Counted from the first letter of the stretch, positions 2,610-51,116 are shown. The stretch: 64,000 nt of DNA from Bacteroidia bacterium (GCA_965216465.1 CBDCFW010000004.1:64001-128000), one strand, 5' to 3'. The notes: generated by a model from the letters alone, not told the origin. A program made the numbers and translations.

Positions 2610-2981
2610 TTATGCAGCCACATTGAAATAATTATATAACAGTGATTTTAACTGATTCATATTAGAGGGTTTAGACAAGTAATCGTTTATACCGCCAGCT
2701 TCTAAATCGCTTTCAATTTCGTTGTATGGAAGGCTGGTAAATGCTACTATTGGAGTAGTAGAATCTGACTCACGAATCGCTTTGCTTGTTTCAAATCCGT
2801 TGAGTTTAGGCATAATGATGTCTAATAATATTAAATCGTAGTAATCTTCTTTATAAGCAGATAGAGCAGAAATACCGTCATAAGCTATTGTGTTTTCAAT
2901 GTTAAGGTCGTTTAAGATTTGAGCAATCGAACTTGCTAAAATTTGATTGTCTTCAGCAATCAATACTTTGTAGTTTGACAT
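2610..2981 (-). CDS. Single-domain response regulator (CheY-like receiver)
   Basis: VLIAED, DLILLDIIMPKLNG (phospho-Asp), AFTS, YLSKP; no output domain. Confidence 0.93.
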   Translation of the reverse strand: MSNYKVLIAEDNQILASSIAQILNDLNIENTIAYDGISALSAYKEDYYDLILLDIIMPKLNGFETSKAIRESDSTTPIVAFTSLPYNEIESDLEAGGINDYLSKPSNMNQLKSLLYNYFNVAA

Positions 2982-3015: not shown

Positions 3016-3031
3016 TTCAAACCTTTTGCCA
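3016..3031 (-). promoter_or_regulatory. Putative sigma54 (-24/-12) promoter of the response regulator
   Basis: Minus strand TGGCAAA-AGGT-TTGAA versus consensus TGGCACG-N4-TTGCW; predicted start near 3005, 24 nt before the ATG. Confidence 0.55.
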
Positions 3032-3643: not shown

Positions 3644-3697
3644 AGAACAAAGGTATAAACATTCTGAAATTAATTGAATTGGGCTTACCTTTGGCCC

Positions 3698-4747
3698 GTG
3701 AATATAGTGTTCTCTCCAGTTGAAGAATCTCGATTATCTCAGGTCGACTTCAACAATCTTGAATTTGGAAAAATCTTTACAGACTACATGTTAGTATCGT
3801 CTTACGATGGAACATCTTGGTCAGATTATAGTATTGAGCCTCTGAAACCATTACCTATTCATCCAGGAGCGTCAATGCTTCACTACGGGCAAACCGTTTT
3901 TGAAGGACTAAAAGCATATAAGTCTGATAATGACCAAGTAAATCTTTTTAGATTGAGAGATAACATGGAAAGATTGAATACCTCGGCAGAAAGAATGCAG
4001 ATGGCACAAATAAATGTAGATGATGCTATAGCTGGTATTACTCGATTTGTAGAAGAACAAAAAGATTGGATTCCAACTAAGAATAATGGTTCGCTCTACG
4101 TTCGTCCATTTATCATTTCTACAGATGATACCTTGAGAGCCAAGCCAAGTGATACGTATAAATTCATTGTTATTGCCTGTCCTGTAGGTTTCTATTATGA
4201 TAATCCCTTAAAAATTTACTTAGAACGTAAGTTTAAAAGAGCTGCTACCGGCGGAGTAGGGTACGCAAAAGCCGGTGGAAATTATGGAGCGTCATTCTAT
4301 CCTGGGGAAAAGATTAAGCACGATGGGTTTGATCAAATCTTATGGACCGATATAACGAACGACTATACACTCGAAGAATTAGGTTCTGCCAACTTCTTTT
4401 ATATGCGTGGTAATGTCTTGGTTACTCCGAAATTAAGAGATAGTATTCTAAAAGGAATTACACGCGATTCAATTATTCAACTGGCAAAAGACCAAGGCAT
4501 CGAAGTAAGTGAAGAGTTAATTACAGCAAAGCATTTTGAAGAAGATCTTTTTCATGGAAGAGTGAAGTGTATGTTCGCCACAGGTACTGCCGCTTCAGTT
4601 ACTTTTGTAAATTCAATAACAATTGATGACAATACGTACACCGTTGATTCAGTTCAGCATGAAGCTGTTCAAGCGTTAAAAGCAAAGATTGATGGAATTA
4701 AGTTCTTGGAAGAGACGGATGCCCACAATTGGAATTTTCTAGTGTAA
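3698..4747 (+). CDS. ilvE: Branched-chain amino acid aminotransferase
   Basis: LHYGQTVFEGLKAY, LYVRPF, AKAGGNYG (PLP Lys), ILKGITRDS, TGTAA. Start moved from TTG 3674 to GTG 3698, which follows TACCTTTG. Confidence 0.93.
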   Translation: MNIVFSPVEESRLSQVDFNNLEFGKIFTDYMLVSSYDGTSWSDYSIEPLKPLPIHPGASMLHYGQTVFEGLKAYKSDNDQVNLFRLRDNMERLNTSAERMQMAQINVDDAIAGITRFVEEQKDWIPTKNNGSLYVRPFIISTDDTLRAKPSDTYKFIVIACPVGFYYDNPLKIYLERKFKRAATGGVGYAKAGGNYGASFYPGEKIKHDGFDQILWTDITNDYTLEELGSANFFYMRGNVLVTPKLRDSILKGITRDSIIQLAKDQGIEVSEELITAKHFEEDLFHGRVKCMFATGTAASVTFVNSITIDDNTYTVDSVQHEAVQALKAKIDGIKFLEETDAHNWNFLV

Positions 4748-4916
4748 AAGTATTTAACGTGATAGAAGAGCTTAGCTAGTTGAGTAAGTTTACTATTTGC
4801 GGGTCATTCTTCATTTGTAAAGAGCACAAAACCAGCATTTTATAATTTCGTTGGGTATCTTAATTTTTTATGTCATCCCAAAATGAGACAATTTAACTAT
4901 TCCACATTTAGGCTTG

Positions 4917-4929
4917 CAAAGTGTTGATA
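4917..4929. promoter_or_regulatory. IHF-consensus site
   Basis: Reverse complement TATCAACACTTTG matches WATCAANNNNTTR. Confidence 0.4.
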
Positions 4930-5074
4930 ATCTTGGAATTTCCTTTAAATCGGGAGAAATTATCTAAATTTATACCAGATATGGCACATTGGAAAAGTGT
5001 TCGAATTCTGCCATAATTCTAAAAATTAGAATAAAGTGTCTATAAATGGGAATATTTTGAGGGGTTAAAAATGT

Positions 5075-5087
5075 TAATCGACTGATA
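5075..5087. promoter_or_regulatory. IHF-consensus site upstream of the sigma54-like promoter
   Basis: Reverse complement TATCAGTCGATTA matches WATCARNNNNTTR, at about -56 to -44 from the predicted start 5131. Confidence 0.5.
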
Positions 5088-5104
5088 ATCAGCATAGTTA
5101 ACTT

Positions 5105-5120
5105 TGGCATCATATTTTCA
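5105..5120 (+). promoter_or_regulatory. Putative sigma54 (-24/-12) promoter
   Basis: TGGCATC-ATAT-TTTCA; spacing puts +1 at about 5131, where the first hairpin begins. Confidence 0.55.
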
Positions 5121-5130
5121 TATATAGTAG

Positions 5131-5231
5131 TGTACCGCAAGGTACGCATGGTTAATAATTTTCATCATAAGTAGTAGTTTAGTATTTTATCTTTGAAATT
5201 AAGTCCTGGTCTATAAGGCCGGGACTTTTTA
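5131..5231 (+). ncRNA. Candidate small RNA (~100 nt)
   Basis: 5' hairpin GTGTACC-GCAA-GGTACGC (GNRA loop), AU-rich middle, strong intrinsic terminator; lies in a 510-bp gap with no ORF of 60 aa or more. Confidence 0.6.
5201..5231 (+). terminator. Intrinsic terminator
   Basis: AAGTCCTGGTC-TATAA-GGCCGGGACTT followed by TTT ATTT; G-U pairs favour the + strand. Confidence 0.85.
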
Positions 5232-5257
5232 TTTCGTTAAATTTCTACACTAAAAAC

Positions 5258-6334
5258 TTGAATTTCAGAGCTTATACATATTTCCTACTTGTTTCAATAC
5301 TGCTACTATATCCAAAATTAAGTAGATCTCAACTTTATGAATTAACGGGAGAAGACTTCTATGTTTACTTCGATTCTGATAGCTACGAGCTTACAAAAAA
5401 ACAGCAAGAGGTAATTAAACAGAAGCTAATTGGTATCGGAACAACCAACATCAAGGAGATTTATATTGAAGGGCATACCGATAGTTTTGCTTCAGATAAG
5501 TACAACCAAGTATTAGCTCAACATCGAGCAGAAGCAACTTCAGCATACTTGTTAAGACTGGGTGTGCCTGAAAGATTTATAAAACTTGAAAGTTTCGGAG
5601 AGTCTCAACTCATTTCAGATAACCAGCAGAATAATAGACGTGCAAAAATTTATGTTGTGCACGAAACAGATTTAAAGTCAGTGGTATATCCTCCAAAGTT
5701 TATACGTGTTCGTACAATCAATAGCCAGACTAAAAAGCCTATAAAGGCAAATTTGGGCTTTGGCTATAAGGATAAAGAAATGAAGTTTAGCTCAACTGAT
5801 CGATACGGCTACTCACCGGTGCTTTCTTTGTTGAGTGGTGATCTTGAAATTTCTGCTTCTTCAGATTATTACTTGAGTCAATACATGAAACTTCCTCCGG
5901 GTGATGTCGATAAGCCAGTAGATACACTCGATTATGTTCTTGAACTGGTGCCGGTTAAAATTACAGGGAAGTTTACCTTTAACAGCATCTATTTCTTCAC
6001 CGATAGTGACTCAATTCGACCAGAATCAACCACAGAGCTTCACAAGCTACTAGCAGTATTACAACGCAATAACAGTGCCTACATAGAAATTCAAGGACAC
6101 ATGAATTATCCTATAGACCGCCCTAGAAGTAGCGTACAAGACCGTTACAATATGGAACTGAGTTACAAACGTGCAAAGGCAGTAAATGACTTCTTGGTTC
6201 GAAGTGGAATTGATCAAGAGCGATTAACCTATAGAGGAATGAGTAATACACGAATGAAATTTCCGCTACCTGGAAGTAAGGCTGAAGAAGATCAAAATAA
6301 GCGAGTTGAAGTGTATACGCTTAAGCCCTTATAA
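5258..6334 (+). CDS. OmpA-family protein with two OmpA C-terminal-like domains
   Basis: Signal peptide; VYFDSDS..IEGHTDS..YNQVLAQHRA..NRR and IYFFTDS..IQGH..LSYKRAKAV..NKRVE. Confidence 0.88.
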   Translation: MNFRAYTYFLLVSILLLYPKLSRSQLYELTGEDFYVYFDSDSYELTKKQQEVIKQKLIGIGTTNIKEIYIEGHTDSFASDKYNQVLAQHRAEATSAYLLRLGVPERFIKLESFGESQLISDNQQNNRRAKIYVVHETDLKSVVYPPKFIRVRTINSQTKKPIKANLGFGYKDKEMKFSSTDRYGYSPVLSLLSGDLEISASSDYYLSQYMKLPPGDVDKPVDTLDYVLELVPVKITGKFTFNSIYFFTDSDSIRPESTTELHKLLAVLQRNNSAYIEIQGHMNYPIDRPRSSVQDRYNMELSYKRAKAVNDFLVRSGIDQERLTYRGMSNTRMKFPLPGSKAEEDQNKRVEVYTLKPL

Positions 6335-28009: not shown

Positions 28010-28288
28010 ATGACTAAAGCAGAAGTAGTTAACGAAATAGCAGAGCGCACTGGCGTAGAAAAAGCAGTTGTACAAGAAACCGTAGAAAGTTTCTTTAAAG
28101 TTGTTAAAGGTTCTATCGTCAATGGCGAGAATGTGTACTTCAGAGGATTTGGTAGTTTCGTGGTTCAAAGAAGAGCTCAAAAGATTGCGAGAAACATTTC
28201 TAAGAACACGCAAATCACAATCCCAGCACACAACATTCCTAAATTCAAACCAGCAAAGTCTTTCGTAGAAAAGGTCAAGAAGGGGTAA
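28010..28288 (+). CDS. HU/IHF-family DNA-binding protein
   Basis: MTKAE, RGFGSF, ARNI, P.FKP; TACATTTG promoter element at 27974-27981. Confidence 0.95.
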   Translation: MTKAEVVNEIAERTGVEKAVVQETVESFFKVVKGSIVNGENVYFRGFGSFVVQRRAQKIARNISKNTQITIPAHNIPKFKPAKSFVEKVKKG

Positions 28289-51042: not shown

Positions 51043-51116
51043 GGGGAATTAGCTCAGTTGGCTAGAGCGCTACACTGGCAGTGTAGAGGCCACCGGTTCG
51101 AGCCCGGTATTCTCCA
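51043..51116 (+). tRNA. tRNA-Ala (GGC)
   Basis: Cloverleaf with acceptor GGGGAAT/ATTCTCC (G3:U70), anticodon stem CTACA/TGTAG, loop CTGGCAG, T arm ACCGG-TTCGAGC-CCGGT; CCA not encoded. Confidence 0.98.

Follow-up and report, generated by a model that had tools for sequence, protein, structure and literature searches.

A conserved small RNA gene with a predicted sigma-54 promoter and feedback circuit in a family of uncultured Bacteroidia

The ilvE-OmpA spacer

The DNA analysed here is a stretch of 64,000 nucleotides from a Bacteroidia bacterium, referred to below as the window. An ilvE-like gene and a gene of the OmpA family are separated in it by a spacer of 510 nt, and the segment at 5017-5236 of this spacer carries a series of promoter and RNA elements. 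These are listed here with the two flanking genes.

3674-4747: class IV aminotransferase, ilvE-like; stop at 4747
5017-5031, plus strand: palindrome 1, TTCT-N7-AGAA, candidate enhancer (UAS); part of a 38-nt tandem element at a fixed position in 22 family copies
5038-5052, plus strand: palindrome 2, GTCT-N7-GGAA, lying 21 bp downstream of palindrome 1, a register conserved between genera
5075-5087, minus strand: IHF-like site TATCAG-N4-TTA, overlapping a conserved palindrome, CTGATAATCAG, at 5082-5092
5105-5120, plus strand: sigma-54-type box TGGCAT-N5-TTTCA; -24 consensus, -12 reads TC
5131-5236, plus strand: predicted small RNA of ~105 nt, from covariance model R1 and the fold z-score; 5' end placed from the -12 element, 3' end from the T-run
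5130-5147, plus strand: 5' hairpin with a GNRA (GCAA) loop; compensatory changes in 5/5 modelled pairs
5146-5200, plus strand: invariant core, mostly unpaired, candidate seed; contains an anti-start CAU, UUUCAUCAU and AAGUAGUAGUUUAGUA
5148-5174, plus strand: mini-ORF MVNNFHHK, judged non-coding; start or frame lost in at least seven lineages
5201-5236, plus strand: intrinsic terminator, a 12-pair hairpin (5201-5227) plus T-run; compensatory changes in 9/11 modelled pairs
5258-6334, same strand as the RNA and downstream of it: protein with two OmpA domains

Five of these elements had been pointed out in a sequence-only reading of the window, and all five were recovered at the coordinates given there. 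The IHF match at 5075-5087 reads TAATCGACTGATA on the plus strand, and its minus strand, TATCAGTCGATTA, fits the IHF consensus WATCAR-N4-TTR. The 5' hairpin at 5130-5147 has 7 bp closed by a GCAA loop, the AU-rich single strand at 5148-5200 is largely unpaired, and the terminator is a 12-pair hairpin at 5201-5227 followed by a T-run. The distance from the ilvE stop (4747) to this terminator, given earlier as 450 bp, is 454 nt. The sigma-54 box at 5105-5120, TGGCATCATATTTTCA, follows the consensus in its -24 half, while -12 has TC instead of GC. The palindromes at 5017-5031 and 5038-5052 are upstream elements that had been overlooked.

The hairpin at 5201-5227 is the sole terminator-like site within 4400-5700, where shuffled sequences give 0.5 +/- 0.8. 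Folding of the 107-nt RNA (5130-5236) yielded -33.5 kcal/mol versus -17 +/- 2.9 in 200 shuffles (z = -5.65, with 0/200 as good).

Structure, conservation and distribution of the RNA

When relatives were searched with the entire 510-nt ilvE-OmpA spacer, the match was limited to approximately 5009-5249, and every element within it recurs in register in other genera. This conservation is the strongest evidence against a chance arrangement. An alignment of 13 copies has a nearly invariant centre, and its 5' hairpin and terminator vary through paired changes. The covariance model built from this alignment, R1, found the RNA in 12 of the 28 genomes of the genus and in 41 of the 65 other genomes of the family, representing 12 of 13 genera; the latter count comprises 34 matches at E <= 1e-9 and 7 weaker ones in whose alignments the core was confirmed, with five further weaker matches left out. 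Over 147 genomes from other families of the class R1 gave 0 matches. Four R1 matches in a sister family were rejected as false, being made up of coding-region ends with a terminator. When 185,579 species genomes were scanned for the exact pattern, 36 stretches were returned, all from uncultured Bacteroidetes/Bacteroidia MAGs or from unlabelled entries.

Across 37 distinct copies, in an alignment that favours the structure because it was fitted to the model, 98.8% of 581 pair cells are paired and compensatory changes occur in 14 of 16 pairs, which 0/500 shuffles reach. The roughly 50 nt between the helices are letter-identical across genera (alignments A2 and A4) while the flanks diverge, and the 5' stem is replaced outright between genera with a GNRA or UUCG loop retained. 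Covariation and conservation thus establish the structure of the RNA and its invariant core, and on this comparative evidence the flagged stretch is a real small regulatory RNA gene, conserved in a family of uncultured Bacteroidia.

At the gathering level the only Rfam match in the whole window is a tRNA at 51043-51116, and a permissive scan of 4700-5400 produced nothing near a gathering score (best E-value 0.4). The RNA matches neither the Qrr, GlmY or CrcZ models nor any other Rfam family model, and the earlier impression that the locus belongs to no known Rfam family was borne out by this Infernal/Rfam check.

Three variants of the locus deserve description. The genome G091 carries two complete tandem RNA genes, 330 nt apart (L036:1501-1619 and 1830-1948), each with a sigma-54 box and a terminator. 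Genus g12 (L057-L061, L064) holds a diverged copy with a different 5' hairpin and ATCATCGTAAGTAGTAGTTTAGTA in the core. In G003 the RNA-less spacer between ilvE and the OmpA gene (L153:2600-2660) is only ~85 nt long and retains a terminator hairpin resembling that of the RNA, as though promoter and body had been lost by deletion.

Promoter, upstream elements and candidate activator

The sigma-54 consensus, TGGCAC-N5-TTGC, places GG at -24 and GC at -12, spaced by 10 nt. GG at -24 is present in 35/35 distinct copies of the RNA gene and GC at -12, at canonical spacing, in 23/35, and the distance from box to hairpin is constant. Scores of at least 13/15 are reached by 25/35 copies, the window's own box (13/15) being among this class, versus 0.6% of 5000 random 60-nt stretches of this genome. 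In this genome and its two closest relatives -12 is off-consensus, reading TC, GT and TC rather than GC, and promoter strength here is therefore uncertain. An IHF-like TAA-N4-YTGAW motif is found ~15 bp upstream of the sigma-54 box in 21 of the 35 distinct copies with enough upstream sequence. Further upstream, a weight matrix derived from 22 tandem palindrome elements scores the window's site at 35.7, the best value genome-wide; at the two tandem RNA genes of G091 it is high only upstream of the first (32.6 vs 6.4). Sigma-54 promoters typically have upstream activator sites some 80-150 bp from the start, often with an IHF site in the interval; the candidate sites at 5017-5052 and the IHF-like site at 5075-5087 agree with this architecture and are conserved in register. 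The assignment of the promoter to sigma-54 is drawn from this anatomy and is to that extent a prediction.

The proteins that such a promoter would call for are encoded in the genome, which has rpoN (Sigma54_DBD match, E = 6.8e-55), four proteins with a full Sigma54_activat domain and two HU/IHF-family (Bac_DNA_binding) genes that could specify HU, not IHF. One of these two genes lies in the window at 28010-28279. A gene for Hfq was not found in this genome, and we know of no Hfq in Bacteroidota.

The diverged g12 copy lacks the TGGCA box, and by eye a TAnnTTTG-type box stands in its place, which we take to be the Bacteroidetes housekeeping (sigma-A-type) -7 element. This looks like a promoter swap to the housekeeping type. 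Together with the duplicate in G091, the g12 promoter change suggests that the RNA gene is an independent unit.

Among the four enhancer-binding proteins, EBP-C (contig C5) has REC and AAA+ domains and a weak HTH and is an NtrC-type response regulator. Within the genus, the RNA and EBP-C occur together in 11 genomes and are both missing from 13; the RNA stands alone in 1 genome and EBP-C alone in 3. The RNA-only genome, G018, is 100% complete and contains no EBP-C orthologue; two of the three EBP-C-only genomes have the locus at a contig end, and in G010 the locus is assembled and empty. In about ten genera TTCC-N7-RGA palindromes lie near upstream of the sigma-A -7 box of the EBP-C gene, a layout that would suit autoregulation. 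TTCC-N7-GGAA palindromes also precede sigma-A-type promoters elsewhere in this genome, and an enhancer-binding protein acting there could at most repress, never activate. The link between EBP-C, the RNA and the palindromes is an association among related genomes, on the basis of which we lean modestly towards EBP-C as the predicted activator of the RNA promoter. The EBP-C genes of two g12 genomes have neither a proximal palindrome nor an ACTACT motif.

A tblastn comparison of the four enhancer-binding proteins with 85 loci found no full enhancer-binding gene adjoining the RNA, the one hit being a receiver domain in L085. EBP-B, which consists of REC and AAA+ without a DNA-binding domain and has a tandem palindrome just past its stop codon, was rejected as the activator because the genus has just 2 other genomes with an orthologue and because EBP-B is missing from G007, a complete genome that carries the RNA. 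EBP-A occurs in genomes both with and without the RNA, and EBP-D adjoins lptE. Upstream of EBP-A a GGCTTATAGTTTTGCA-like motif is conserved (L158-L173), again whether or not the genome carries the RNA; apart from an additional base separating GG from GC, this motif looks like a sigma-54 box.

Tandem palindromes are present at several other places in this genome. On contig C4 (~34.5-34.8 kb; L119:3531-3807, minus strand), a tandem TTCC-N7-GGAA element between convergent genes is followed by a sigma-A-type box, a non-coding stretch of ~175 nt and a terminator. Over its first ~30 nt the non-coding stretch nearly matches the reverse complement of the RNA core, and it could act as a sponge or anti-sRNA; across 65 family genomes its body is not conserved, and the palindrome part alone matches. 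On contig C6 (~247.2 kb; L120:3228-3535), a tandem palindrome precedes a 5' UTR with at least 16 nt of core complementarity, a 47-codon hydrophobic small ORF and a terminator, also between convergent genes. A third locus between convergent genes, on contig C5 (~239.7 kb; L121:3245-3437), has a tandem palindrome, an ORF-less stretch of ~115 nt and a strong terminator, and may represent a further small RNA governed by the same operator. Elsewhere on contig C6, a 390-aa enhancer-binding protein with receiver and AAA+ domains and no DNA-binding domain (L118:1949-3121) has a tandem palindrome directly past its stop (L118:3152-3189), and the next gene encodes a 352-aa protein with AACTACTACT in its start region.

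Candidate targets and the proposed circuit

The core is complementary to an ACUACU motif found at the start codons of three signalling genes, those for a PAS-GAF histidine kinase, a receiver-only regulator and EBP-C. The best start-codon site belongs to the kinase, a 796-aa PAS-GAF-PAS-HisKA-HATPase protein encoded in this genome at C3:250866, whose orthologues occur in 10 of 66 family genomes, all 10 of which have the RNA. In 8 of the 9 kinase orthologues with a defined start, ACTAC or CTACT lies within 30 nt of the ATG. The contiguous match reaches 9-12 nt in 6/9, extending in g11 and g20 over the AUG, where it pairs with CAUGGUUAA of the RNA, and the duplex energy is better than at least 98% of shuffles in 8/9.

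The receiver-only gene is located in the window, where it is preceded by a promoter-like box:

2610-2981, minus strand: receiver-only response regulator, 123 aa (Pfam Response_reg), syntenic with the RNA; candidate co-regulated gene and target
3016-3031, minus strand: sigma-54-like box, TGGCAAAAGGTTTGAA, 50 nt upstream of the receiver-only gene; score 12

Among 16 homologues of this gene, 12 have ACTAC or CTACT in the 30 nt that precede the ATG, and the window's own 5' UTR has CTAAACTAC. By the same measure (within 30 nt of the ATG) the motif is found in 10/21 EBP-C orthologues, 0/14 for EBP-A as a control and 115 of 2691 genes as the genome background (4.3%), counts whose significance is overstated since orthologues are not independent. 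Contiguous core matches of at least 9 nt occur in only 4/21 EBP-C orthologues. The sigma-54-type box of the receiver-only gene lies -37 to -59 from the ATG, mostly at -44 to -50, with a score of at least 12 in 13/16 homologues and a perfect 15/15 in 5/16, a value that 0/5000 random stretches reach. On the receiver-only promoters the tandem-palindrome matrix scores 9.5 or less. At L051 alone among these loci, inspection by eye showed palindrome-like elements that are spaced differently. Directly downstream of the regulator, at 154-2562 on the minus strand of the window, is the gene for an 802-aa protein without a Pfam match and with at most 78-79% identity in relatives, which may belong to the sigma-54 unit of the receiver-only gene.

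Target ranking within a single genome is weak. Core complementarity of at least 9 nt in 5' regions showed no genome-wide excess (17 genes vs 19.9 +/- 7.8 for shuffled segments), and shuffled cores give a duplex-energy tail that the real core exceeds in weight by a factor of only 1.3 to 5. Core 12-mers have 133 matches genome-wide vs 59 +/- 24 in shuffles, 48 of the 133 falling on the antisense strand of the RNA gene itself. Genomes without the RNA also have chance AU-rich matches that are 10-13 nt long. Because of these chance matches, and because long matches to EBP-C are few (4/21), we grade the kinase as a probable target and the receiver-only regulator and EBP-C, below it, as possible ones. 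That the core pairs with the start region of the kinase mRNA and thereby blocks its translation is a putative mechanism to which we give slightly better than even chances. EBP-A was considered as a target and discarded, its 9-nt match in this genome being unconserved in 4 RNA-bearing relatives with a defined start. Hand-picked core matches in mRNAs of type IX secretion cargo are a lead only, and these mRNAs are possible further targets.

Three other explanations of the conserved stretch were weighed against a pairing RNA. Since an OmpA-family gene lies downstream of the RNA on the same strand in 28 of the 31 loci with a verified copy, the RNA could be a cis leader or attenuator of that gene, with a sigma-54 transcript that usually ends at 5227-5236 and is read through conditionally. 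The short distance from the terminator to the OmpA-family gene within the genus (only 22-57 nt) and the interrupted T-run after the hairpin in genus g15 point the same way. The remaining 3/31 loci, however (L034, L035 and L036; genera g11 and g20), have the RNA without a downstream OmpA gene, the OmpA gene is kept without the RNA in G003, G016 and G010, and G091 has its two complete RNA copies in tandem. In the g15 loci, inspection by eye also shows a conserved box of the -7 type after the terminator and ahead of the OmpA start, and neither the minimum-energy nor the centroid fold, which are all that this look at antitermination covered, contains an antiterminator pairing. A gene-specific leader does not fit a 50-nt core that stays invariant although the OmpA protein drops to 35-40% identity, and we regard this reading as quite improbable. 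The suggestion that the core encodes the 8-residue MVNNFHHK, as a leader peptide or micropeptide, starts from the ATG-initiated ORF at 5148-5174, which the invariance of the core preserves in most copies, and L052 and L053 do retain the frame with one codon deleted or changed. Yet the start codon is gone in L017/L031 (ATT), L055 and the g12 copies, and the frame is shifted in L004/L025, L011/L029, L012/L030 and L056. The three codon positions do not differ in their invariance, which places the constraint on the RNA, and conservation runs 25 nt past the stop; a coding function is scarcely credible. The sequence-only reading had offered as its own alternative a leader in which MVNNFHHK attenuates the OmpA-family gene, and this is unsupported in view both of the lineages that lost the start or frame of the ORF and of the separability of the RNA from the OmpA gene.

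The RNA might instead titrate an RNA-binding protein through repeated GUA/UAG motifs, in the manner of CsrB or CrcZ and with no base pairing. Some 50 invariant unpaired nucleotides with short repeats (AAGUAGUAGUUUAGUA) are also typical of protein-binding RNAs, and the missing genome-wide excess of complementary sites is what titration would lead one to expect. It does not account for the recurrence of ACUACU beside the start codons of three signalling genes across genera, nor for kinase complementarity that reaches 9-12 contiguous pairs including the AUG, and no candidate partner protein was identified. We consider titration unlikely.

A trans-acting RNA read from an RpoN-type promoter as a separate short transcript, which the sequence-only reading had proposed, is supported by all of the comparative evidence: the conserved -24/-12 box with its constant spacing to the 5' hairpin, the enhancer-type palindromes and the IHF-like site, the rpoN and enhancer-binding proteins encoded in the genome, the invariant unpaired core and its conserved complementarity to the starts of other genes. 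We consider it likely that 5017-5236 makes up the whole gene of a ~105-nt small RNA that acts in trans, with a predicted sigma-54 promoter, activator and feedback. The RNA probably feeds back on the signalling proteins that would switch it on. We infer the transcription start, the dependence on rpoN and EBP-C, the binder of the palindromes and the direction of regulation from sequence comparison.

In the proposed circuit, a cytoplasmic PAS-GAF kinase would signal to EBP-C, which would bind, between about -114 and -79, the two TTCC-N7-GGAA-type palindromes with their 21-bp offset. A bend of the IHF/HU type between the palindromes and the promoter would then carry EBP-C to the sigma-54 polymerase at 5105-5120. 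The resulting RNA of ~105 nt would be guarded by its stable 5' GNRA hairpin and end at the intrinsic terminator. Its GUAGUAG and anti-start CAU would pair, without Hfq, with the ACUACU and AUG of the kinase, receiver-only and EBP-C mRNAs, lowering translation of all three and thus exerting negative feedback on the RNA's own pathway. A wider scheme, which we offer tentatively and hold to be rather doubtful as a whole, would make the RNA the output and brake of an orphan phosphorelay in which the kinase acts on EBP-C and the receiver-only regulator. The RNA would silence all three through ACUACU-AUG and tune type IX cargo as an Hfq-free, non-homologous analogue of Qrr that arose in this uncultured family, and one genus would have been rewired to a housekeeping promoter.

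Several sigma-54-dependent small RNAs of Proteobacteria invite comparison. Qrr1-5 have a sigma-54 promoter under the NtrC-type LuxO, and luxO and luxMN are details of their feedback. GlmY of Enterobacteria is transcribed from a sigma-54 promoter; an enhancer-binding protein of the response-regulator type has activator sites upstream of this promoter, with IHF sites in the interval. GlmY acts by protein mimicry or sequestration, not by seed pairing. CrcZ and CrcY of Pseudomonas (CbrB, sigma-54) and NrsZ (NtrC, sigma-54) are enhancer-binding-protein-dependent small RNAs, CrcZ being a protein sponge with repeated A-rich motifs. Qrr1-5 and the Bacteroidia RNA are alike in having a length of ~100 nt, a 5' hairpin, a conserved unpaired region and a terminator, and they share a sigma-54 promoter and an NtrC-type response regulator, both of which are predictions for the Bacteroidia RNA. 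In contrast to Qrr1-5, the Bacteroidia RNA has no Rfam match in sequence or structure, belongs to another phylum and to a genome without an Hfq gene, is mostly single-copy, and nothing ties it to quorum sensing. The promoter anatomy of GlmY is the same as that predicted for the Bacteroidia RNA, whereas mimicry or sequestration differs from the proposed seed pairing, and the Bacteroidia RNA again has no Rfam match. Dependence on an enhancer-binding protein, predicted here, would be common to CrcZ/CrcY, NrsZ and the Bacteroidia RNA, which are not homologous and come from unrelated taxa. The Qrr small RNAs of Vibrio are described in the available text of PMC2680268 as feeding back negatively on their own pathway. 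By analogy, the Qrr/LuxO circuit would be the closest counterpart in logic and GlmY in promoter anatomy, with no homology to either.

Small-RNA regulation in Bacteroidota is poorly charted, and promoters and translation signals in the phylum are unusual. GibS and MasB of Bacteroides are small RNAs of this phylum. For Rfp18 of Flavobacterium psychrophilum, pairing with protease and adhesin mRNAs is predicted in the available text of PMC9723704, in which sigma-54 has a single mention, as an annotated regulator adjoining lptE. Rfp18, GibS and MasB resemble the Bacteroidia RNA as Hfq-independent small RNAs of the same phylum; they differ from it in that a sigma-54 promoter is reported for none of them in the accessible parts of the literature, and in that the Bacteroidia RNA is confined to one uncultured family. 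No sigma-54-dependent small RNA of Bacteroidota was found in Rfam or in the accessible literature, including passages of PMC9723704 and PMC12316311. The RNA is a new family of a known kind, previously undescribed.

The locus presents a full, testable wiring, with an enhancer, bending site and promoter, a 50-nt invariant seed, a candidate activator and candidate targets in its own pathway, and the invariant core is a ready marker for the family in metagenomes and metatranscriptomes. If confirmed, the circuit would mean that feedback circuits joining a two-component system, sigma-54 and a small RNA arose independently outside Proteobacteria, and it would provide a handle on how a small RNA blocks translation in bacteria without Shine-Dalgarno pairing.
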